Assembly: GCA_964574145.1 (NCBI GenBank)
Contig: CAZNKJ010000002.1
Span: 2,075 to 66,074, forward strand
Direction of reading: 5' to 3'
DNA from: an uncultured Candidatus Saccharibacteria bacterium
GTDB taxonomy: Bacteria > Patescibacteriota > Minisyncoccia > Phycocordibacterales > CAZNKJ01
DNA length: 64,000 nucleotides
Shown: positions 44,969 through 60,238 of the stretch, one piece after another
Layout of the letters: each line of letters begins with the position of its first letter
Numbering within the stretch: position 1 is the first letter of the stretch
The notes under the pieces: generated by a model
What the model was told of the DNA's origin: nothing
Database searches by the model: none
Seen by the model: only the letters and a program-made list of their open reading frames with translations
Translations under genes and position numbers: made by a program

Positions 44969-46261
44969 CTATTTTTTTAGCTGTATTTCAACTAAAATCT
45001 TCTCTGGGTCGTTTCCAAATGATTGTCTCCAGAATGGATTTATGGAGGCATGAGCTTTGTAGATAGCTGGATAGCCTTTTAATATAGTATTGACTGCTGA
45101 TTTAGGACGATTCCTCAAGTCTTCTTTCAGTCTACTTTCATCAAAAGTCCATACTATGCTGGCCGTACCCTTAAGTGAAAAGGTAAAAGAATCTTCTTCC
45201 CATGGTTGAGAGATTTCTCCTGTGGGTTTTTTTAGAGTTAAATCTTTTGTAGATAAGATATACACTGGGAGACCTTCATAATCTGATATAGTTTCTTGAG
45301 CAATATATTGTGCAAAATCTTTTCTTTTAAAAATAACAGCGTACACTATTCCACTACTTTCTATGCGCGCCTTGTTGTCACCGTCATCAAAAATTTGCGG
45401 CTCCGAAAAATTAAAGAAAGTTCCACCTTCAAAAAAATAAAAATCTGATGGAATGTCTGTATAGACCTGATTAAGCATTTCCTCACGTAACTTTTTTTCT
45501 AAAGATTGTTTTGTTTTAGAAAACAAACCATCTTCAACCTTGAGTCTCTCACCAGCAAAACCTCCAGTCATAGGAGTCTTTGATCGAGCGTAAAATTTAC
45601 TATATTGAGGAGAACCTTTAAAACCAGGAATAGTAAAATCTTTAAGAGGAATATTATATTTTTCTCCTGGCTCATCTCCGTAAACGGTCACTTCCACACT
45701 ACCTGGGGTTATGCTACCATCTGAATTTTTTTTCTGTCCTGGAATAGATACCGACTCATTAATTCTGTAAATTAGCCCTTCCGGAGTTTCAAAACGAGTA
45801 TTAGTCACTAGTCGCTGTTTTTTAGAACTGAAATTATTGAAGATTAAAATTTTTCCAGAAGATTTTTTCTCAATTTGCTCTTTGTCAGTAGCAGAAACAA
45901 CTTTAGATACGGTTTTCTCAATTTGCATTATTTCATAAGAAAGTTCTCCTATCTCAGGCTCTCGTAAGGCCGTAAATTGACCATCCACAGTAACTTCCTT
46001 TTGTTTTGGGTTCACTATGATTTTAGAGTAAGAAAAAATAAGAGAAAGAATTATTACAGCAACAACTAGCAACACTACTGAGATGATCCACGTACCATAT
46101 TTTGAAAAGAAATTAGTTTTACTGCGATCGGGTGGAATTGGAGGAGTGTTATTGTACTCATAAGACTGCCCTACTTTGGACTTTGGGACATTAGAGCGAC
46201 TTATATTGCGAATACTTCTGCGTTTAGGGGGTACTATATCGTTGAATGAATTCTGTGACAT
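44969..46261 (-). CDS. single-pass membrane protein, unknown function (about 55-aa cytoplasmic N-terminus, TM, about 350-aa extracytoplasmic domain)
   Basis: TM WIISVVLLVVAVIILSLIFSY; no family recognised. Confidence 0.5.
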   Translation of the reverse strand: MSQNSFNDIVPPKRRSIRNISRSNVPKSKVGQSYEYNNTPPIPPDRSKTNFFSKYGTWIISVVLLVVAVIILSLIFSYSKIIVNPKQKEVTVDGQFTALREPEIGELSYEIMQIEKTVSKVVSATDKEQIEKKSSGKILIFNNFSSKKQRLVTNTRFETPEGLIYRINESVSIPGQKKNSDGSITPGSVEVTVYGDEPGEKYNIPLKDFTIPGFKGSPQYSKFYARSKTPMTGGFAGERLKVEDGLFSKTKQSLEKKLREEMLNQVYTDIPSDFYFFEGGTFFNFSEPQIFDDGDNKARIESSGIVYAVIFKRKDFAQYIAQETISDYEGLPVYILSTKDLTLKKPTGEISQPWEEDSFTFSLKGTASIVWTFDESRLKEDLRNRPKSAVNTILKGYPAIYKAHASINPFWRQSFGNDPEKILVEIQLKK

Positions 46262-46332: not shown

Positions 46333-47538
46333 TTACGAGGATTTATTAATAAGTGATAGATGAATTATTTGAAGTAAAAGAGAAGAATCGGGAGCTATTT
46401 TTTGATCAAAAGAGAAAAAATTTCCCATCATCCCAGCAGTTAGTACCGTAATGGTATGATAATCCTGTTTATCTTCATTGTCATTATTAAGATATGACTC
46501 TAATAATGATTTAAACCAATAAGAGGTGTCAGACGGTGCCGTAATATAGATATGTTTAGGAAGAGGTGCTGTGGAAATAAATTTTCCGAGGGTTTGGTTT
46601 AACTCAACACTCCATTCCTTACTTACTTTTTGGATCAATTTGTATTCTTCAGAAGTTTTGTTGAGGTGGGATTCTTTTTCTGTCATCATACGTATTAAAG
46701 AAAGAGCTTCCGCTGGAGTACTGTTGCGTTTTTCGGATATTATTCGAGCCAGGGTTAATACTCCTATAGGAAAGGGTATCGTCTCTTGTATGACATCTTT
46801 TAACACAAGAGTTAAGTTACTAACTTCCCCACTTATATTTATAAGTAAAAACTTGTCAGATTTTGAGTAACAATCCCTAACTACTGTATAAGTAGAGAGA
46901 GAACGTGAATAAAATGTTACGTTTATATTTCTAAAATGGTTGTCTAGAACGTCACAGATATTTTTTTTAACCAAGGCAGACATAAAAGCCATATGAAGAG
47001 ATAAACTAATGTGTTTTGCTTTTTTCCCATAGGGATTGGCAGTTCTGTAACCATTTAAATCAACACTAAGTAGTTTTTTATCAATTAGAGAAGGTTCTTT
47101 GATATGTTTGTTTTGCCACAACTTACCTTTTTCTTTCTTCGCATGATCTTCTGTACGTTCTAGCATCTTTTCAATAAAATGCGGAGAAATCACAAAAGAT
47201 TCTTTTCTTTGAAATGAAAGAAGATGTGTTTTTGAGACATACCAGATAGAAGAAAGTCCACAAGAAACGGTCTTTATATGAAAATTAACAGAAGAATTTG
47301 CTATAAATCTATTTACTTCTTCACTTATCTCTATCAAACCTCTAAGCATTTCTTTTATGAAACGATCATATCTTAGGTGGGATTGAAAGATGAGCTGAAC
47401 TCTGGTAGAAAAATATATATGTATTTTCCCATCTTTCTTAAAGCCAGAAATTGAACATCCTATTGATGAGCTCCCTATATCAAAAACAATATCAACTTTT
47501 TTACCAGATCTTTTGTGCCACGACGATATCCATCTCAT
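46333..47538 (-). CDS. divergent actin-fold ATPase (FtsA/PilM-like)
   Basis: N-terminal VDIVFDIGSSSIGCSI (phosphate-1-like), later INISGEVSNLTLV (phosphate-2-like); 401 aa. Confidence 0.4.
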   Translation of the reverse strand: MRWISSWHKRSGKKVDIVFDIGSSSIGCSISGFKKDGKIHIYFSTRVQLIFQSHLRYDRFIKEMLRGLIEISEEVNRFIANSSVNFHIKTVSCGLSSIWYVSKTHLLSFQRKESFVISPHFIEKMLERTEDHAKKEKGKLWQNKHIKEPSLIDKKLLSVDLNGYRTANPYGKKAKHISLSLHMAFMSALVKKNICDVLDNHFRNINVTFYSRSLSTYTVVRDCYSKSDKFLLINISGEVSNLTLVLKDVIQETIPFPIGVLTLARIISEKRNSTPAEALSLIRMMTEKESHLNKTSEEYKLIQKVSKEWSVELNQTLGKFISTAPLPKHIYITAPSDTSYWFKSLLESYLNNDNEDKQDYHTITVLTAGMMGNFFSFDQKIAPDSSLLLQIIHLSLINKSS

Positions 47539-51917: not shown

Positions 51918-52522
51918 TAGCCCACCTTGTTAAGAGTGGCTAATACTTTAAAATCTTTCTCCAGAGTAGTTATTAGATCTCTATTATATATAGCTGCCGC
52001 AGGATGATATTGAGGTGCTATGAGTACAGGTCCATAAGATGTTTTAGTTTTATATATTTTGCCATGAGCTGTGCTGATTGGTTCAAGTTCAGACTCAAGA
52101 TCAAATTTCTTCATGATATAAATCATTGAATAACGACCTAGGGTTGCAATAACAGAGGGTTGAATTATCTCTATTTGCCTATCTAGGAAAGGTCCGTATA
52201 TCTCTATTTCAGAAGGAAGTGGGTCTCGGTTTTCAGGAGGACGATCTTTTACTATATTAGTTATATAAACGTCTTCTCGCGCAATTTTTATAGAAGCGAG
52301 CAATCTATCTAAAGTTTTTCCAGCCGCGCCGCAAAAAGGTTTCCCTTGTTTAGCCTCATTTCTTCCTGGCGCTTCACCAATAAACATAATATTTGCATTA
52401 TGATCACCTTCTCCAAGGACAGGATAGTAATTATTTTCTGTACGAAAATTATATAGCGGAGATTTGTTTAAAGTAAAAACCTCATCTCGTATAGATTCCA
52501 TCTCTTTTGTTTTGTTTTTCAT
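51917..52522 (-). CDS. uracil-DNA glycosylase family 4
   Basis: GEGDHNANIMFIGEAPGRNE and FCGAAGKTL motifs. Confidence 0.85.
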   Translation of the reverse strand: MKNKTKEMESIRDEVFTLNKSPLYNFRTENNYYPVLGEGDHNANIMFIGEAPGRNEAKQGKPFCGAAGKTLDRLLASIKIAREDVYITNIVKDRPPENRDPLPSEIEIYGPFLDRQIEIIQPSVIATLGRYSMIYIMKKFDLESELEPISTAHGKIYKTKTSYGPVLIAPQYHPAAAIYNRDLITTLEKDFKVLATLNKVG

Positions 52523-52803
52523 AGAGCTTTTTCTTTTTTAAGCATCTCTATTTTCTTTTGTCTACCACCATTATATCCTCCTGGGGTGCCATTCTTACGT
52601 ATGACACGATGACATGGTATATCTGGATTGTGGTTCGCTTTCATTATATTTCCAACAGCTCTGTGTGCGAGAGGGTTACCTGCTTTCTCAGCAACTTCTT
52701 TGTAAGACATTGTTTCGCCTGAAGGAATAGCTTTTACTATAAAAAGTACCCTGTCTTTAAACCCTAGCTGATCTAAATATTTAAATATCTTACTCATAAT
52801 CAA
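52519..52803 (-). CDS. ogt: methylated-DNA--protein-cysteine methyltransferase (short, C-terminal-domain-only form)
   Basis: SYKEVAEKAGNPLAHRAVGN ... IPCHRVI active-site cysteine. Confidence 0.8.
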   Translation of the reverse strand: MIMSKIFKYLDQLGFKDRVLFIVKAIPSGETMSYKEVAEKAGNPLAHRAVGNIMKANHNPDIPCHRVIRKNGTPGGYNGGRQKKIEMLKKEKAL

Positions 52804-52813
52804 TTAGGTTGTA

Positions 52814-53698
52814 TTAAAACAAGGTTGGAGTATCGCTCAAACTTTCTCTACACACGTCTTTTCTTTGTCTTTTCTGCTTGGTTCGACCTTGATCCAGATA
52901 CATTTTTTGTAATTTTTTCCCGGAAGCCTCTCTATAAGAACAAAATTCACAATTATTACCTGAGATGGGAATATTATTACTCTCAAGACATTTTTTGATT
53001 TTCTCCAAAGTTGGTTCTATCCATTCTGTTTGTCCATCACATGGAACGACTGTTATTTCAAATTTTAATTTTCCATCAAAAACATCCTCTTCGGCACGAG
53101 CATTAGCATAAACAAAATATCCAGTTTTACTTACAGGAAAATTATTTTGAAGAAGAAGCCATTGATATACTCCTATTTGTCTCTTGTATTGATCTTCCCA
53201 AGAAGAATCAGATAAAGATTCTATTCTTCCTTTTTTAGAAGTTGATTTATAATCAACTACAATCAGCTCCCCTCTTTCATTTTGCCATATATCATCTACG
53301 GCTCCTGAAACAATAAAACCTGTAGGTTTATGTGTAAACTGTAAACCTTTAAAATTTTCTCTCCAAATATCCATATCTTTATGTTCATACGGTATTGCTT
53401 TAATAGAGTTTTGTGTCATTAGAGGGTGTGATTCCTTTTTTGCACGATAAATATCAAACTCTTTTTTAAAGAGAGTATCAACTGCTATATTTATAGTAAA
53501 AGCAGGCCCTCTTGGGCGGGCTGTGCCTAATTTATTGTTCAAATAGAAACAACGAGGACATTCTATAAAAAGATCTATTTTTGATCGAGAAAGCCTCCAT
53601 TTTTTACCTCCATAATTCCAATCTGAAGAACGGTTTGGGTTATATGCCATTGGCAATACTATATCACAGACATAGCAACATCTGGTATAGAGATTCAA
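52814..53698 (-). CDS. Cas4-like PD-(D/E)xK (RecB-family) nuclease with Fe-S cysteines, standalone
   Basis: SKIDLFIECPRCFYL (Cas4 N-terminal Cys motif), VVDYKST, QYKRQIGVYQWLL (QhxxY), C-terminal C-x12-C-x2-C. Confidence 0.7.
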   Translation of the reverse strand: MNLYTRCCYVCDIVLPMAYNPNRSSDWNYGGKKWRLSRSKIDLFIECPRCFYLNNKLGTARPRGPAFTINIAVDTLFKKEFDIYRAKKESHPLMTQNSIKAIPYEHKDMDIWRENFKGLQFTHKPTGFIVSGAVDDIWQNERGELIVVDYKSTSKKGRIESLSDSSWEDQYKRQIGVYQWLLLQNNFPVSKTGYFVYANARAEEDVFDGKLKFEITVVPCDGQTEWIEPTLEKIKKCLESNNIPISGNNCEFCSYREASGKKLQKMYLDQGRTKQKRQRKDVCRESLSDTPTLF

Positions 53699-54195
53699 TC
53701 TTCGTCTTCAAAATCATCATCTACTACACGAGTATGGTTTCCATCATAGGAAAAAAACTTCAAACGACTCTCGACAAACCAAAGAATAGAAAAAACAAAA
53801 AGAGTTAAAATGGTTGTGAAAGTTGCTAAAATATATAATTTATAACCAGTAGCTACTCCAACACCTGCAGCTACCCAAAGACCTGCTGCTGTTGTAATTC
53901 CGCGCACTGATGATTCTCTGACAATAATGAGCCCTGCTCCGATAAAGCCAACCCCTGTAATAATTCCCGACATGACACGAAGAGGGTCCACATTCGTAAT
54001 ACCTATCAAAGTTTGTGCAACTACAGTTGAAATTATAATAAACAAACAAGCTCCTAGAGAAACGAGTGCGTATGTACGCATTCCCGCAGTTTTTCCAGCT
54101 ATTGCTCTTTCGGCTCCCAAAGACATACCTAATATCATAGCGATAAGTAGTTGTAAAAAGAGAGATATTTCTGAGCTAATGGATAATATTTCCAT
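53695..54195 (-). CDS. MgtC/SapB family membrane protein
   Basis: GMSLGAERAIAGKTAGMRTYALVSLGACLF. Confidence 0.8.
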   Translation of the reverse strand: MEILSISSEISLFLQLLIAMILGMSLGAERAIAGKTAGMRTYALVSLGACLFIIISTVVAQTLIGITNVDPLRVMSGIITGVGFIGAGLIIVRESSVRGITTAAGLWVAAGVGVATGYKLYILATFTTILTLFVFSILWFVESRLKFFSYDGNHTRVVDDDFEDED

Positions 54196-54221: not shown

Positions 54222-54731
54222 CTAAATAGTTTCAAATGTAGCCATTATTGGTTGCTGGTCTTTATCAATAAGAATAGAATCCACACCTAACTCAAAAGCT
54301 CTATCTCCATTGTCGCTATAAAGTACAGCATAATATATATTACCGGGGGTAGTGTCTCGAAGAAGCTCTACACTACCTCGCGAAACACCCTCTGGGAACA
54401 AGTAAGCCCCTAGTACGTTACCTAACTTACCATTAAGGTCTTCATGTATAGCAACCCATCCTGAGTGTTCAAGAATTACATTAGAAACACGAACATAACT
54501 TCCCGCCTCTTGATTAACAATATCTACTCGTGCTGTTTCGCCAGAGAGAACAGGAAAACCTTTCTTTGTTAATGTTCTTTCTTCTTTTGTTATCACCTTT
54601 TCTTCCTTTTGGTATTTTTCAGAATTTTTAACTTTAGTATCGATATTCCATATTAAAACAGTACCGATTCCTATAGTAAATCCAACAAAAGCAGAAATGA
54701 GAATTTTTTGATTTATTGAAAGTGTATACAT
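54222..54731 (-). CDS. membrane-anchored protein of unknown function
   Basis: N-terminal TM then about 130-aa soluble domain; no family recognised. Confidence 0.4.
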   Translation of the reverse strand: MYTLSINQKILISAFVGFTIGIGTVLIWNIDTKVKNSEKYQKEEKVITKEERTLTKKGFPVLSGETARVDIVNQEAGSYVRVSNVILEHSGWVAIHEDLNGKLGNVLGAYLFPEGVSRGSVELLRDTTPGNIYYAVLYSDNGDRAFELGVDSILIDKDQQPIMATFETI

Positions 54732-54781
54732 AATTCACATTTTTTTAGACTTGATTAAAATATTTTCTTCTACGAAAGTCA

Positions 54782-55609
54782 TTATACCCCTTTTGGAGTC
54801 TTACACAACAAAAGCCCCTCAGCTACAACTTTTTCTAATTTTTTCTCCGAAAAAACCTCTTTTAGTACTTCGGGCTTTGTGTGCAGCTGTTTACATAGGA
54901 TAATTCCTTTTTCAAGCAGAAGTTTTTTTTCTTGATTAGTAGGACTAACAAGAGCTGTGACTGGCTGGATACCAGTTTCTTCAATGAGATCTTGTAAAGA
55001 TCCACCCTCAGGGTAACTCCAAGACATCATGGTTAATCCACGACAAGTACCATATTCAACAGCATCTTTTGTAAAACGTGTATTGGTGATAAGCCATCCT
55101 TCGTCAACAACTTTTGGTTTTAAGTCAACGAAACGGGCATCTACATAAAGAGCTACTTTTAAATCGGAAGTTAGAGAAAGAGAATTATGAAATTTCATTT
55201 CTGCACCTATTCGCACACCATCTTTTTCTGCAATAAGATCTACTTCATGATTAGCGCACTTACCATTTGTAATAACTCCTGTTTTTGTACTATATCCCCG
55301 CGCTTTAAAAATTTCAGCGACAAAATCTTCAAAAGGAAATCCACTTGGACCTAGCTCTTGAACTGCTCTCTTCATAGAATAGCGAGCTGCAGGAATATGT
55401 GCTTTTCTTTTTTTTAGAAGAGAGAAGGCGTGTTTATATATATGAGAAGTGGTATCATTTTCTTGTACCTCTTTTTTTACATGCGCAACTATTGCATCAG
55501 AAATTGTAGGATCAGCCCCAGATCGTCTGAGAGAAGATCGGAGTTTTTCTGGAATAAACGGTTCAGTGTCACCATTCTGTTTTTTAATATTAGGATACTG
55601 ATTATTCAT
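54782..55609 (-). CDS. ATP-cone domain fused to an Mrr-like restriction-endonuclease catalytic domain
   Basis: N-terminal KKQNGDTEPFIPEKLRSSLRRSGA (ATP-cone, NrdR-like); C-terminal FEDFVAEIFKARGY ... HEVDLIAE ... AEMKF (Mrr_cat D/ExK). Confidence 0.6.
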   Translation of the reverse strand: MNNQYPNIKKQNGDTEPFIPEKLRSSLRRSGADPTISDAIVAHVKKEVQENDTTSHIYKHAFSLLKKRKAHIPAARYSMKRAVQELGPSGFPFEDFVAEIFKARGYSTKTGVITNGKCANHEVDLIAEKDGVRIGAEMKFHNSLSLTSDLKVALYVDARFVDLKPKVVDEGWLITNTRFTKDAVEYGTCRGLTMMSWSYPEGGSLQDLIEETGIQPVTALVSPTNQEKKLLLEKGIILCKQLHTKPEVLKEVFSEKKLEKVVAEGLLLCKTPKGV

Positions 55610-55642: not shown

Positions 55643-56743
55643 TCAGACAATAATACCTCCCCCTAAACACCTTAATCCTTTGAAACCCTTAACTGACCCT
55701 TCTTCATATAACACCACAGATTGTCCACTTGAGACCAGAGGAAGAGTGTCTTTAAAGCATACTTTTGCAGTATTTTCGTCTTTTATAGCTATCAAAACAC
55801 TAAGCAAGTTACCTCGTAATCGTACCCTTGCTTTATATAGTTTATTTTTTTGCGGGATATCACCTATCCAATTGGTGTTCTTTATATTCAATTCATCAGA
55901 TTTTTTATTCAAAGATACTGGTTGGTTAGAAACTATTAAGATGTTTTCTTTTATATCCTTACCAACCACATAGAGAGCTTTGTGTAAAGATGTATCAGTT
56001 ATATGAAAACCGTGTCGCTCCCCCAAAGTAAAAAACTCAACTCCGTCATGTGTACCAACCTTCTTACCTGTCTCAGAGAGAACCACACACCCTTTTTTAC
56101 CAACAATGTAGTGGTGTAAGAAGTCTTTCATATTTATTGACCCAATAAAACATAACCCCTGACTATCTTTTTTCCGGGCAGTAGGTAAAGCATGCTTTAC
56201 AGCGATTCGGCGTGTTTCTTTTTTATTCATTCCACCAACAGGAAACTGCATAGACAGGAGGCTAGCATTTTCAACCGCCCACAGAAAATATGATTGATCT
56301 TTCTCCTTATCAACAGATTCCCAAAGAGTTGGAGTTTCGTTATTAAAAATTTGAGCATAATGCCCTGTAGCAACACCATCAGCCCCCATCTTTTTTGCCC
56401 ACTCAAGAAAAGCTCCAAATTTCACTTCCTTATTGCACAAAACATCAGGATTAGGAGTAAGTCCTTTATTATAACATTGCAACATTACCTCTATCACGCT
56501 TTTTTTATATACAGCCTCCAAGTCCAATGTTTTAAAAGTTATTCCAAGGTGAGCACAAACACGCATTGCGTCAAGTCTATCTTCTTTCCATGTACATTGA
56601 ATAAAATCAGGTTGCCATACTTTTATGAACACACCAACTACCTCATAATCCTGTTTCTTCAAAAGTAACGCGGAAACTGAACTATCTACTCCACCAGAGA
56701 GTCCGACATATATCTTTTTTCTTTTCTTATCCGAGTTAGTCAC
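55643..56743 (-). CDS. mnmA: tRNA-specific 2-thiouridylase MnmA
   Basis: PP-loop IYVGLSGGVDSSVSA, MnmA cysteines. Confidence 0.9.
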   Translation of the reverse strand: MTNSDKKRKKIYVGLSGGVDSSVSALLLKKQDYEVVGVFIKVWQPDFIQCTWKEDRLDAMRVCAHLGITFKTLDLEAVYKKSVIEVMLQCYNKGLTPNPDVLCNKEVKFGAFLEWAKKMGADGVATGHYAQIFNNETPTLWESVDKEKDQSYFLWAVENASLLSMQFPVGGMNKKETRRIAVKHALPTARKKDSQGLCFIGSINMKDFLHHYIVGKKGCVVLSETGKKVGTHDGVEFFTLGERHGFHITDTSLHKALYVVGKDIKENILIVSNQPVSLNKKSDELNIKNTNWIGDIPQKNKLYKARVRLRGNLLSVLIAIKDENTAKVCFKDTLPLVSSGQSVVLYEEGSVKGFKGLRCLGGGIIV

Positions 56744-57821: not shown

Positions 57822-59105
57822 TCAGAGTGGTATGTCCGGGGGAGCTATTTTCTGCCGAGAAGTAATTCTAGGAATTGTCGGCGTTTGTACAACTTGTCCA
57901 GGTAAATGAAATACTGTGGCTAGCTCCTCGGAACTCAAGACAAAATAGTCACGCTCATACGGAGGTGAGAGATAGGAGCGTAAACGGTATCCTTCATAAA
58001 GTTCATGTTTTGCAGCTTTAGCACGCCAACCAAACGGATCCTCCCAAGGATATTTAAACATTGTGGGAAATTTTGGTTTAAAGTTATTAAGTGAATGAGA
58101 CTGAAATGTTCGCATGATAGTAGGAAACCCATTACGTTTTCTGCCATCAAAATGTTCCTTATCAGCCATATAGATCATGCGAATGCCAGTATCAAAAGGT
58201 TTTTTACTAGTATTTCGTTCAAGAGCCTCAATTGTTTTTTGTTCACTTTCCGTAAACATACGGAAAGAAGATCCTTCGCCTCCCTGAGCTTTACTTATAA
58301 TATTCTCAACTTCCCTTTTTGCTTCATCCTGCCAATCTTCAGTTTGAAACCAAGTACCATGTTTATGTTTTTCCGCCTGATGAGCTCTAATAATAATTTG
58401 AAAAAAACCATATTCTCCTTTTCCAAAAGATCCAAAAAATTCAATGATAGCCGCCATAGGATCTACTTTGTATTCTTCGTCTGTCTCTTTATCCAACCCC
58501 CAATCCACATAGGTTTTTATTGGATATGGATCAGGTTTTGCCAAAACCTGATACAACCCAAACAACTCTTGTTTATCAGGATTGTAAGGAAGACGAGTAA
58601 TATAATCAGGTACTTCCTGAATTTCAATTGTTGGATATTGACTATAAAACTGTGATTCTACAACAGGTTTTATTTTTGAAGGAATGCGAATATAAAAATG
58701 AATCTCTCCCTCTAAAGAAACTATTTCTAGTGAAGATTGCTCGCGTAATTTTCCTTCTACATACTTTTCATAACTATGTTTAGGAGTACCTGTGTGGAAA
58801 AAAGCATTCAAAGCTGTTTCCATCGCAAGAGGAGACTGAGTTATCTCCTCTGGTAATTTTATCTCCAGAAGAATATTTTCAATTTGCATGAAAGCCTTCG
58901 TCCGCACATAGTGCATCCATAAATGTCCGAAAATAAAAATAAAAATAACAGTGAGCCATAATGGTGCGTAAGGTGTTAAAGTCTTATATACATCAGATGC
59001 AACCATAATGGGAAAGAAAAAATAAGCCCCAATGGCTATGGTAATCAAAAGTAATCCAACTGAAACTTCAGAACCAGTTAATGTTTTTAGTATTTTATCA
59101 AACAT
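57822..59105 (-). CDS. membrane protein of unknown function (two N-terminal TM, about 340-aa soluble domain)
   Basis: No family recognised. Confidence 0.45.
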   Translation of the reverse strand: MFDKILKTLTGSEVSVGLLLITIAIGAYFFFPIMVASDVYKTLTPYAPLWLTVIFIFIFGHLWMHYVRTKAFMQIENILLEIKLPEEITQSPLAMETALNAFFHTGTPKHSYEKYVEGKLREQSSLEIVSLEGEIHFYIRIPSKIKPVVESQFYSQYPTIEIQEVPDYITRLPYNPDKQELFGLYQVLAKPDPYPIKTYVDWGLDKETDEEYKVDPMAAIIEFFGSFGKGEYGFFQIIIRAHQAEKHKHGTWFQTEDWQDEAKREVENIISKAQGGEGSSFRMFTESEQKTIEALERNTSKKPFDTGIRMIYMADKEHFDGRKRNGFPTIMRTFQSHSLNNFKPKFPTMFKYPWEDPFGWRAKAAKHELYEGYRLRSYLSPPYERDYFVLSSEELATVFHLPGQVVQTPTIPRITSRQKIAPPDIPL

Positions 59106-59194: not shown

Positions 59195-60238
59195 TTACTT
59201 AGAAATGCTGTAAATACCTTTTTGATCTCGTTTAAAATAAGCAGAGTCTTGAAGATTTACCAAAATAGTATTGTCTTTCACGTATCTTTCTTTTTTTACC
59301 AAGTCTATAATTTCCTGCCTAGAAAGAGGTCCGTGTTTTTCTAAGACATCTGAAATTACATCTTTGACTACTCCACGAGAGTATCCCCATTCTGAAAGAG
59401 CATACAACCCTCGTCCAACCAATACAAAACGTTTATCTTTAATTAGCTCATTATGACATGTTGCAACATGAGCTCGTTTTTTGAAAAGCTCGGTAATAGT
59501 TTCCGCAACTTCAGTAAAGTGCATAGGAGACCCATGGTGTTTAATTACAAGATAAGCATAGTCTCGCATCCCCTTTACACGAACGTTTGCAGAAGTCGCC
59601 ACTCCCCATTCTCCTAGAGGATTTTTTCCCAATTGTTTTGAAAGAGAAAGCCATCGACGTGCAATTTCTTCATTTTTATACACTTCATTAAGTTCAGAAA
59701 CTTCTTTCAAAAATCTTTGTATAAGCTCTGACTCCGGTATCAGATCATCATCTGAAAGAGAAGCGTATAAATTCTGTAGAGCAGAATGTACAGTATCTGC
59801 TATTTTTTTATCTACATACCATCGGTGATGAAATTCTGCATTTTCTTTTTCGCGCACAAACATTTCTCCTAAAACAAGAAGAAAATTAATATGACTACGA
59901 ACATCGAGATCTTTGCCGAAAATTTCCAAGAGATCGTTCTCAGTAACTATGCCTCCTATTTTAGCAACAGCCTCTTCAAGCTCTTCAAAAACAAACTGCT
60001 CTTCCTTGAAAGTGTCCGATTTTCGTATATTCGCCAATCCGTAATTTTCAATCTGACGAACTCTCTCTCGAGTTATCCCATAGATATTTCCAATAGCCTC
60101 TAAAGTCTTAGTTTTTCCTCCTTTTTCAAGCCCATACCGACTAATCAAAATTTCACGCGCTCGATCTGATAGTACGGATAGTAGGCGTTTTGTTACTTGT
60201 TTTGGTTTAAAACTTAATGTTGTCATAGACTTTTGCAT
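59195..60238 (-). CDS. sigma-70 region-4 (HTH) domain protein with about 270-aa C-terminal extension
   Basis: LSDRAREILISRYGL ... KTLEAIGNIYGITRERVRQIENYGLANIRK aligns with sigma region 4.2; no regions 2 or 3. Confidence 0.6.
   Translation of the reverse strand: MQKSMTTLSFKPKQVTKRLLSVLSDRAREILISRYGLEKGGKTKTLEAIGNIYGITRERVRQIENYGLANIRKSDTFKEEQFVFEELEEAVAKIGGIVTENDLLEIFGKDLDVRSHINFLLVLGEMFVREKENAEFHHRWYVDKKIADTVHSALQNLYASLSDDDLIPESELIQRFLKEVSELNEVYKNEEIARRWLSLSKQLGKNPLGEWGVATSANVRVKGMRDYAYLVIKHHGSPMHFTEVAETITELFKKRAHVATCHNELIKDKRFVLVGRGLYALSEWGYSRGVVKDVISDVLEKHGPLSRQEIIDLVKKERYVKDNTILVNLQDSAYFKRDQKGIYSISK

Follow-up and report, generated by a model that had tools for sequence, protein, structure and literature searches.

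Gene T, the subject of this analysis, lies on the minus strand of the window (the whole 64-kb stretch of DNA that was analysed), between a tRNA-modification gene and two genes for membrane proteins. The features in and around it are given below in the direction of transcription.

55643..56743, (-): mnmA (tRNA 2-thiouridylase), upstream of T (Pfam tRNA_Me_trans, 239 bits; 33-nt gap to T)
54782..55609, (-): gene T, an open reading frame (ORF) of 275 aa (the end coordinate counts the stop codon)
55355..55597, (-): ATP-cone domain of T, aa 5-85 (Pfam, superposition on NrdR and ribonucleotide reductase (RNR) cones, contact mapping)
55328..55351, (-): linker GPSGFPFE of T, aa 87-94, between the final helix of the ATP-cone and the first of the nuclease
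55010..55354, (-): Mrr-type PD-(D/E)xK nuclease core of T, aa 86-200 (Mrr_cat match, catalytic tetrad)
55328-55330, 55238-55240, 55199-55201 and 55193-55195, (-): codons of the catalytic residues E94, D124, E137 and K139, respectively
54803..55009, (-): C-terminal helical domain of T, aa 201-269 (AF1548-like_C, (HhH)2-like)
54222..54731, (-): DUF7282 protein of 169 aa, membrane-anchored by an N-terminal TM helix (35.4 bits; 50 nt downstream of T)
53695..54195, (-): MgtC-family membrane protein, downstream of T (Pfam MgtC, 110.7 bits)

An initial annotation of this DNA had placed the gene at 54222-55609, a range that also spans the separate DUF7282 ORF; the motifs that it quoted (here within FPFEDFVAEIF, GY, HEVDLIAE and AEMKFHN) all fall inside the 275-aa ORF of T. 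T is not a chance ORF, since two database searches returned thousands of homologues (3,486 and 7,274). It is single-copy within the window, where a search for a second ATP-cone or a T paralogue found none. The genes around T in the window all run in one direction, separated by -4 to 89 nt; shuffled sequence contains more promoter-like sites than the window does, and neither side of T has a terminator-like site. Because the genome is compact and its genes co-directional, operon inference around T is uninformative, and for the same reason adjacency to mnmA or to repair genes says little.

Domain architecture and conserved residues

T comprises three domains: an ATP-cone, an Mrr-type PD-(D/E)xK nuclease and an AF1548-like_C helix-hairpin-helix (HhH) domain. 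The first two had been proposed in the initial annotation and were both borne out by the evidence described below, while the third had been overlooked. The predicted structure of T has a pLDDT of 88.6; T showed similarity to the solved structure 1Y88 with an E-value of 1e-32, as well as full-length likeness to members of the AF1548-like three-domain family.

For the N-terminal domain, the Pfam ATP-cone profile (PF03477) scored 20.5 bits on T against a gathering score of 25.8, as a partial match covering aa 7-52 only, and 36-41 bits on orthologues at 50-55% identity, where it covered profile positions 1-84 of 88. The modelled fold of this region has a lid formed by a β-hairpin and then a cone of four helices, and its superposition on the NrdR cone gave 1.8-2.1 Å over 81-83 residues (23-24% identity). 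The inner-site contacts of E. coli NrdR are V51, K53, E59, P60, F61, K65, L66, R72, S105 and I108 (bioRxiv 10.1101/2025.03.28.645925), and the T residues aligned to them are, in the same order, I8, K10, E16, P17, F18, K22, L23, R29, T54 and I57. K10, E16, F18, K22, L23, T54, I57 and Y77 are kept in 70-78 of 78 orthologues; the counterpart of NrdR Y131 is ambiguous between K80 and the conserved Y77, which sits in the last cone helix. Because orthologues reach 36-41 bits and the NrdR inner-site contacts match residue for residue, we regard this sequence-based ATP-cone assignment as secure despite the sub-gathering score of T itself. The canonical ‘K-R’ pair of ATP-cones is K-Q in T and K-A or K-S in most orthologues. 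We considered that the missing Arg might mark a dead sensor and rejected this, given that E. coli NrdR has K-S at these positions and binds nucleotides.

The Pfam Mrr_cat profile (PF04471) matched aa 90-188 of T with 30.4 bits (gathering score 21), and the Pfam search of T gave no match to the Mrr_N winged-helix domain, the N-terminus being the ATP-cone. The catalytic tetrad is intact, with E94, D124, E137 and K139 each present in 78/78 orthologues. Across Patescibacteria, Bacteroidota, Chlamydiota and Archaea, D124, E137 and K139 do not vary and E94 hardly does; H141, R159, D162 and N176-T177 are also invariant across these deeply diverged lineages. The predicted catalytic residues of AF1548 are D38/E51/K53 (PMC1821046). 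Structural neighbours of the T nuclease fold are 1Y88, NucS, Can2/Card1 and type II/IIS restriction enzymes. In the linker, G87, P88, G90, P92, F93 and E94 are each present in 78/78 orthologues, the last being the first residue of the catalytic tetrad, and we infer that this segment may act as an allosteric coupling element. With ligand-contact and catalytic residues invariant or nearly so, the nucleotide gating of a nuclease that had been suggested for this gene is a reasonable proposal on sequence grounds. C118, C189 and C239 are conserved in 76-77 of 78 sequences of the bacterial set, and C269 mostly; a universal four-Cys metal site was rejected, as several archaeal members lack C239 and C269, which leaves C118 and C189 as the cysteines shared by the whole family.

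DNA binding by HhH modules does not depend on sequence, and the C-terminal domain of T, which resembles the HhH modules of the Rad51 N-terminus and of PolX, probably binds the DNA backbone in this manner. The AF1548-like_C profile (PF22357) gave no report for T at E <= 0.1 and scored above gathering in the orthologues P0029, P0034 and P0036; region aa 201-269 of T falls within the 1Y88 alignments.

Among the orthologues of T is Archaeoglobus AF1548 (PDB 1Y88, PF22357), for which the record consists of a truncated structure from 2004. Two short forms of AF1548, namely the crystallised protein (199 aa, tag included) and the one annotated in the type strain (174-187 aa), have neither the ATP-cone of T nor its GPSGFPFE segment with the first catalytic Glu. 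A 265-aa form that is 99% identical over the solved part and has a canonical ATP-cone is encoded in other Archaeoglobus genomes. At 50% identity, the T family falls into 611 clusters, all of about 270-300 aa, with hosts in Patescibacteria, Bacteroidota, Chlamydiota and Archaea and an identity of 47-80% within the lineage of the window. T is an ordinary member of this large, uncharacterised, chromosomally fixed family, for which databases hold generic names only and NCBIfam has no model. A literature search, outside which lay Aravind, Wolf and Koonin (2000), reportedly the work that defined the ATP-cone, retrieved no functional study of the T family, of this fusion or of the cassette described below; a paper on the Pseudomonas iron metalloproteome was rejected as a chance co-occurrence of terms.

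Genomic contexts of T homologues

In 66/75 Patescibacteria loci, T occupies a shared backbone (LeuRS ... YceG-MnmA-T ... AlaRS-IF1-S13-S11), in which mnmA, immediately upstream, serves as the syntenic anchor. T is a chromosomal gene that is vertically inherited. An MgtC gene is a frequent neighbour, found downstream of T in 32 loci, and the DUF7282 gene follows T in only 15/81 surveyed loci. The segment after T in Patescibacteria often carries genes for a Cas4-like PD-(D/E)xK nuclease (36 loci), UDG (24) and Ogt (16), and in 8 Patescibacteria loci an HD_3/YfbR-like 5'-deoxynucleotidase is encoded a few genes downstream. The repair genes, inserted variably between T and alaS, are missing in many loci that keep T; what had been described as a Cas4-like/Ogt/UDG/HD module holds up as a variable but conserved DNA-repair/maintenance segment of the backbone and is no defence island.

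Transporters of several types (CorA, MscS, MgtC and P-type ATPases) recur beside T, and the function that we propose below leaves them unaccounted for.

Outside Patescibacteria, T heads a conserved cassette encoding a β-CASP RNase, an AMP-phosphorylase-like enzyme, a PRPP synthetase and PPK2, to which Usp is often added. Among the non-Patescibacteria loci, 42 had 8 kb or more of sequence downstream of T; of these, 34 have the β-CASP nuclease, 22 the phosphorylase, 20 the PRPP synthetase and 18 PPK2. Where the β-CASP gene is the next gene, its gap to T is mostly -4 to +21 nt, and one plasmid each from Criblamydia and Pontibacter carries the four genes in the same order. The partners matched a TTHA0252-type RNase (E-value of 1e-71), the 4GA5/4GA6 phosphorylase (E-value of 3e-103) and a PRK07199-type PRPP synthetase. 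In Bathyarchaeia, the order is an IF-2B-family gene (ribose-1,5-bisphosphate-isomerase-like), an AMP-phosphorylase-type gene and then T, with an 11-nt overlap; among Archaea, the phosphorylase linkage was seen in only 1/9 sampled contexts. Such neighbours suggest that nucleic acids are recycled under energy stress and do not speak for phage defence. In Patescibacteria, no salvage partners were found within 10 kb of T (74 loci) or within the 64-kb window, so that a salvage role for the T of the window is extrapolated from orthologues at about 45% identity.

PADLOC, run on T and ten neighbours, returned no system and no meaningful match, the weak partial matches of T being to the candidate PDC-S02 (E-value of 1.2e-4, aa 42-131) and to the ZorD nuclease tail (E-value of 0.019). 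T was present in 0/50,697 phage records and on only 2/72,556 plasmids, and a CRISPR array search found none. Among about 180 loci, only 1 had a restriction-modification neighbour (an archaeal locus with a divergent MjaI-type R-M pair). A survey of homologues for a defence-island setting, as advised in the initial annotation, instead found them essentially uniformly housekeeping-associated, with one Patescibacteria backbone between mnmA and alaS. The suggested ‘stress or anti-phage effector’ is thus not supported in its defence part, there being no defence context, and keeps its stress part in another form, as an energy-stress/nucleotide-salvage island outside Patescibacteria.

Candidate functions of T

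We tentatively favour, at close to even confidence, a reading of T as a soluble, non-sequence-specific endonuclease that is set by adenine-nucleotide status and serves nucleic-acid turnover and salvage. The N-terminal ATP-cone would bind ATP, ADP or dATP. ATP-cones are oligomerisation switches driven by ATP/dATP (PMC9110341), and by analogy with RNRs and NrdR, ligand binding may shift the conformation or oligomeric state of T. This shift would be relayed via the invariant GPSGFPFE linker, with its catalytic E94, to a putative Mg2+-dependent PD-(D/E)xK site formed by E94, D124, E137 and K139, while the C-terminal (HhH)2-like domain would hold the nucleic-acid backbone. Its most likely role would be a controlled breakdown of nucleic acid that, when the cell runs short of energy or nucleotides, passes nucleotides to salvage. 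In Bacteroidota, Chlamydiota and Bathyarchaeia, T would do so in linkage with the β-CASP RNase, the AMP-phosphorylase-type enzyme, the PRPP synthetase or IF-2B-family gene, and PPK2; in Patescibacteria, it would act alone within the housekeeping backbone. For DPANN and CPR organisms, nucleases are thought to degrade imported DNA and so feed the AMP-phosphorylase pathway (PMC7414124). Besides the absence of salvage partners around T in the Patescibacteria loci and the single archaeal phosphorylase linkage, one further observation sits against this reading: the cassette partners act on RNA or ribonucleotides, whereas a PD-(D/E)xK core with an HhH domain suggests duplex DNA as the substrate.

A broader proposal, which we hold as possible but doubtful, is that T would be the founding example of a new functional class among ATP-cone proteins, the third beside RNRs and NrdR, namely an endonuclease that is switched by the balance of ATP, ADP and dATP and gates the entry to nucleic-acid recycling. 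Its products would feed the β-CASP RNase, the NMP-phosphorylase-type enzyme and then the PRPP synthetase or IF-2B-family enzyme, with PPK2, in Bacteroidota, Chlamydiota and Bathyarchaeia, and Patescibacteria and possibly DPANN archaea, for which a dependence on scavenged nucleotides is assumed, would keep T among their core genes. In the literature searched, ATP-cones are almost wholly regulators of deoxyribonucleotide synthesis (RNRs and NrdR), and the T family joins this sensor to an intact nuclease; in the RNR subunits NrdA, NrdB and NrdD the regulated enzyme is a reductase, in T a nuclease. Should the gating be true, it would show how a potentially lethal nuclease can be harboured safely by minimal-genome cells (Patescibacteria and DPANN archaea) and by Bacteroidota under starvation, and how nucleic-acid breakdown is coupled to energy charge. 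Some hosts of the T family are Bacteroidota that can be cultivated (Cyclobacterium marinum, Algoriphagus, Roseivirga and Pontibacter), which opens the proposal to direct testing.

Alternatively, T could be an endonuclease that cuts DNA in repair or recombination, recognising particular structures or lesions as do NucS/EndoMS, Hjc or XPF/Mus81 (nuclease with HhH2); the dATP/ATP ratio would then tune cutting to the dNTP supply for repair synthesis. We consider this unlikely. The Rad51- and PolX-like C-terminal domain is consistent with it, as are the Cas4-like, UDG and Ogt genes after T in Patescibacteria and a Korarchaeota gene for 3-methyladenine DNA glycosylase 1.4 kb upstream of T; repair genes are, however, missing from many T-bearing Patescibacteria loci and from the surroundings of T in Bacteroidota, Chlamydiota and most Archaea, and tight overlapping-ORF linkages were seen only with nucleotide-catabolic or transport genes. 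Some sources name the homologues ‘Holliday junction resolvase’, but these names are automatic labels, and a Geoglobus locus holds a separate Hjc gene. T also differs from NucS/EndoMS in having no NucS N-terminal DNA-binding domain, and from XPF/Mus81, which are not among its top structural matches, in having no ERCC4 signature.

It is more improbable still that T is a non-cutting, nucleotide-responsive DNA-binding regulator analogous to NrdR that represses the downstream island, with the ATP-cone controlling oligomerisation and the nuclease-fold and HhH domains binding DNA. The position of T as first gene of the island in Bacteroidota and Chlamydiota is typical of a regulator, and the pairing of a DNA-binding module with an ATP-cone parallels NrdR, whose cone has the same fold and the same inner-site contacts. 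NrdR, however, has an N-terminal Zn-ribbon and no nuclease, whereas T has no Zn-ribbon, an N-terminal cone (starting at residue 5) and then a catalytically intact PD-(D/E)xK domain. Retention of the catalytic tetrad together with H141, R159, D162 and N176-T177 across domain-level divergence is unexpected for pure binding, T persists in Patescibacteria with no island to regulate, and nrd genes were linked to T in none of the annotated loci. The sequence-independent DNA binding of HhH modules also counts against a regulator.

The salvage reading of T also has to be set against that of an anti-phage or abortive-infection effector degrading DNA when infection disturbs the (d)NTP pool, which would follow the sensor-plus-PD-(D/E)xK-nuclease logic of Can2/Card1/Cdn1, NucC and Cap4 and could draw on the resemblance of the T core to Can2/Card1, on the weak match to PDC-S02 and on the MjaI-type pair adjoining T in one archaeal locus, but which we judge very improbable in view of the housekeeping backbone kept in Patescibacteria, the metabolic rather than defensive island elsewhere, the absence of any system recognised by PADLOC and the phage and plasmid counts given above. 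The uniform length and architecture of the family and its high identity within the lineage fit purifying selection on a core gene and do not fit arms-race diversification. Compared with the CARF/SAVED nucleases (Can2, Card1, Cdn1 and NucC), whose sensors read cyclic oligoadenylate alarm signals, T has a predicted ATP-cone for housekeeping adenine nucleotides and no CRISPR or CBASS context. With Mrr, a type IV modification-dependent restriction enzyme, T shares the catalytic family by HMM and the D...ExK motif, but it has no Mrr_N, different N- and C-terminal partner domains and no restriction or defence context. For genome scanning, a sensor-plus-nuclease architecture alone is accordingly no sign of defence, a reading that synteny and mobility tests reversed here.

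Domain architecture and family of the T protein

The range 54222-55609 given in the initial annotation holds two ORFs, and only the first encodes the protein described there (T):

54782-55609, minus strand, T, 275-aa ORF
54222-54731, minus strand, separate membrane-anchored DUF7282 protein, 169 aa, 50 nt downstream of T

All four quoted motifs (FPFEDFVAEIF, GY, HEVDLIAE and AEMKFHN) were found within T, which is present as a single copy, and no ATP-cone ORF besides T was found in the 64-kb window. The Mrr nuclease domain was recovered by Pfam (Mrr_cat, aa 90-188, 30.4 bits for a gathering score of 21). The ATP-cone call is upheld by orthologues 50-55% identical to T, which match the whole profile at 36-41 bits, and by the alignment of NrdR nucleotide contacts, whereas T alone scores 20.5 bits over aa 7-52, under the gathering score of 25.8. 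The inner-site contacts of E. coli NrdR (V51, K53, E59, P60, F61, K65, L66, R72, S105 and I108; 10.1101/2025.03.28.645925) are matched in order by I8, K10, E16, P17, F18, K22, L23, R29, T54 and I57 of T, with K10, E16, F18, K22, L23, T54 and I57 kept in 70-78 of 78 orthologues. T lacks the Arg of the classical ATP-cone "K-R" pair, and E. coli NrdR lacks it too. The orthologues at 50-55% identity also matched a third domain, AF1548-like_C (PF22357), which had been missed. AlphaFold, given 35 orthologues, returned a confident model of T (pLDDT 88.6, pTM 0.81), and the nuclease core is also structurally near NucS, Can2/Card1/Cdn1 and type II/IIS restriction enzymes.

The PD-(D/E)xK residues E94, D124, E137 and K139 were each found in 78/78 orthologues, as were H141, R159, D162 and N176-T177. 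After adding Bacteroidota, Chlamydiota and seven archaeal lineages, D124, E137 and K139 were still invariant and E94 nearly so. T is a three-domain protein with sensor and active site intact. Between cone and nuclease lies the segment GPSGFPFE, which ends on catalytic E94, has six positions conserved in all 78 sequences and presumably serves to couple the one domain to the other. Four cysteines are also conserved, and could form a disulfide, a metal site or mere core packing:

55256-55258, minus strand, C118, invariant family-wide
55043-55045, minus strand, C189, invariant family-wide
54893-54895, minus strand, C239, kept in bacterial branches (76/78)
54803-54805, minus strand, C269, kept in most aligned bacterial members (not tallied over the 78)

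Conservation of C239 and C269 does not extend across archaeal members.

In a 90%-clustered database, T had 3,486 homologues and a Bacteroidota orthologue 7,274. HMMER, run over the complete set of 1.84 billion representatives (E <= 1e-30), yielded 611 clusters, the best 150 of which were all ~270-300 aa and nearly all aligned full length. Bacterial members come from Patescibacteria (Paceibacteria-type lineages), Bacteroidota (including cultured Cyclobacterium, Algoriphagus, Roseivirga and Pontibacter) and Chlamydiota (Criblamydia), and archaeal members from Archaeoglobi, Korarchaeota, Bathyarchaeia, Aenigmarchaeota, Nanoarchaeota and Altiarchaeales. The gene in the window is an unremarkable orthologue in this catalogued family, whose members carry unspecific database names ("ATP cone domain-containing protein", "restriction endonuclease", "ATPase", "Holliday junction resolvase").

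The Archaeoglobus fulgidus orthologue AF1548 was predicted in 2007 to have a restriction-type nuclease fold, with D38/E51/K53 as its catalytic residues (PMC1821046); we found no functional work on AF1548 or the T family in the searchable literature. The type-strain gene AF_1548 is annotated at 174-187 aa. The crystallized chain (PDB 1Y88) starts after GPSGFPFE; missing from it are the ATP-cone and this segment, which carries the first catalytic Glu. A 265-aa version, with 99% identity over the solved part and a canonical VRKRDG ATP-cone, is encoded in other Archaeoglobus genomes. The structural-genomics target is a truncated form of the T family, perhaps through a frameshift or a mis-called start in the type strain.

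The Patescibacteria locus

ORFs were called in the window and in 80 genome loci (81 in total), and the proteins were clustered; 75 loci, window included, make up the Patescibacteria set. These share a co-directional backbone, DUF5671-LeuRS-sigma70_r4/HARE-HTH-427-aa unknown-YceG-MnmA-T, continuing beyond T as [variable segment]-AlaRS-two unknowns-IF-1-S13-S11. MnmA lies upstream of T in 66/75 loci, the exceptions being mostly truncated contigs. The variable segment supplies a Cas4-like PD-(D/E)xK nuclease (36 loci), MgtC (32), UDG (24), Ogt (16), DUF7282 (15) and an HD_3/YfbR-like 5'-deoxynucleotidase (8), as well as HD_4, M3 peptidase, PCMT and EamA. Because the Patescibacteria loci draw on this set, the Cas4-like/Ogt/UDG/HD module in the window represents one variant of a maintenance segment found across the lineage. 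The 5'-deoxynucleotidase is the sole nucleotide-metabolism neighbour of T seen in this lineage; in its eight loci (L002 10846-11451; also L042, L051, L055, L057, L067, L077 and L079) it sits no more than a few genes beyond T on the downstream side, immediately next in five, and it is absent from the window.

Other genes of the window locus are as follows:

59195-60238, minus strand, 347 aa, N-terminal sigma-70 region 4 plus HARE-HTH, next to leuS, 47 loci; an unusual sigma-fragment architecture in one protein
57822-59105, minus strand, 427 aa, hydrophobic segments at the N-terminus, between the sigma-like gene and yceG, no Pfam or PADLOC match, kept in 56/81 loci
52814-53698, minus strand, Cas4-like nuclease (PDDEXK_1 53 bits, PADLOC Cas4 E = 1e-10) with a C-terminal Cys motif
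52519-52803, minus strand, Ogt homologue, 94 aa, C-terminal DNA-binding/active-site domain only, PCHRV motif kept
46333-47538, minus strand, ~400 aa, 37 loci, no Pfam match
44969-46261, minus strand, ~430 aa, 40 loci, no Pfam match

The last two lie between alaS and infA-rpsM-rpsK. No CRISPR array was found near the Cas4-like nuclease; since 36 Patescibacteria loci keep it, it probably works alone, as a repair nuclease of the RecB family, and does not belong to a CRISPR system.

Islands and transporter neighbours in other lineages

In Bacteroidota and on a Criblamydia plasmid, T is the first gene of a conserved island, for which no description was found in the searched literature. Its full order is (Usp)-T-β-CASP RNase (TTHA0252-like)-AMP-phosphorylase-like-PRK07199-type PRPP synthetase-DUF3108-like-PPK2-heavy-metal-type P-type ATPase-MFS, with Usp frequently the immediate upstream neighbour; among the flanking genes are PFOR, PPDK-like genes, glycogen phosphorylase, phosphoketolase and acetate kinase. 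The loci concerned are L040 9980-19394, L054, L071, L081-L084, L087 6995-11602 and L088 1972-6597, together with 80 from a metagenome scan (L089-L168).

Genes within 8 kb downstream of T, in the 42 loci that extend 8 kb or more beyond it on that side
β-CASP nuclease, 34/42
Heavy-metal-type P-type ATPase, 30/42
DUF3108-like gene, 26/42
"Thymidine phosphorylase family" gene, 22/42
PRPP synthetase, 20/42
PPK2, 18/42

The β-CASP gene directly follows T in 30/69 loci that extend 1.5 kb or more beyond T on the downstream side, mostly with a gap of -4 to +21 nt, and a Criblamydia and a Pontibacter plasmid both carry T - β-CASP - phosphorylase - PRPP synthetase. The β-CASP protein is nearest to Thermus RNase TTHA0252 (E = 1e-71), and the phosphorylase to PDB 4GA5/4GA6 (E = 3e-103, N-terminal extension included), which we take to be Thermococcus AMP phosphorylase. 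NCBIfam places the island phosphorylase in the archaeal-type phosphorylase family, with an AMP-phosphorylase score of 489.6, just below the cut-off of 535. The PRPP synthetase, third after T, is of the PRK07199 type. The island resembles a regulon for energy stress and nucleotide recycling.

In Bathyarchaeia, a 514-aa island-type phosphorylase gene shares its last 11 nt with T, and the gene before it belongs to the IF-2B family, which includes ribose-1,5-bisphosphate isomerase. Tight linkage of T with RNA and NMP-catabolic genes is thereby seen in three lineages that are unrelated to one another. Transport genes take the place of the phosphorylase link in the other eight archaeal contexts, as CorA-T-DUF389 (overlapping), MscS-T (overlapping) or amino-acid-permease/Usp fusions, and at one of these loci there is a divergent R-M pair. 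Membrane ion/solute transport genes recur beside T, often as overlapping ORFs (L085 6958-9721; L175 5186-6840; L086 5722-8807; L173 6001-9144; window 53695-54195), with MgtC in 32 Patescibacteria loci and the P-type ATPase in 30 of the 42 Bacteroidota-type loci.

Possible functions of T

We tentatively read T as an adenine-nucleotide-gated nuclease for controlled nucleic-acid turnover feeding salvage. T would cut nucleic acid and adenine nucleotides would gate it; NrdR ATP-cones are ATP/dATP-driven oligomerisation switches (PMC9110341). Its role would then be turnover that supplies nucleotide salvage, in line with a proposed scheme in which CPR and DPANN organisms break down imported DNA and feed the AMP-phosphorylase pathway (PMC7414124). 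The main weakness of the salvage reading is that none of the island's salvage partners was found near T in Patescibacteria; there is also a mismatch, in that the partners act on ribonucleotides and T has the features of an enzyme acting on DNA. Two things may be new, the functional reading as an ATP-cone-gated nuclease and the conserved salvage island; neither was found in the searchable literature. The family is widespread and testable in cultured Bacteroidota, and would take ATP-cone biology past dNTP synthesis.

A repair nuclease tuned by dATP/ATP, to which the NucS-like core and the repair genes beside T point, seems rather unlikely to us. The invariant catalytic residues argue against a non-cutting, NrdR-like regulator, which we consider improbable. 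The (d)NTP-gated anti-phage effector first proposed is the least probable reading, given the conserved backbone around T, no meaningful PADLOC match for T or ten neighbours, no CRISPR array in the window, and tblastn matches in 0/50,697 phage records and 2/72,556 plasmids. Homologues keep housekeeping company in the Patescibacteria backbone, the outcome that the initial annotation had named as speaking against its own defence proposal, and T shows vertical, syntenic inheritance without a defence or mobile signature. Among ~180 loci, the only defence-type neighbour is an MjaI-type restriction enzyme with an N6/N4 methyltransferase, divergent and just upstream of T on one archaeal contig (L173 4163-5807).
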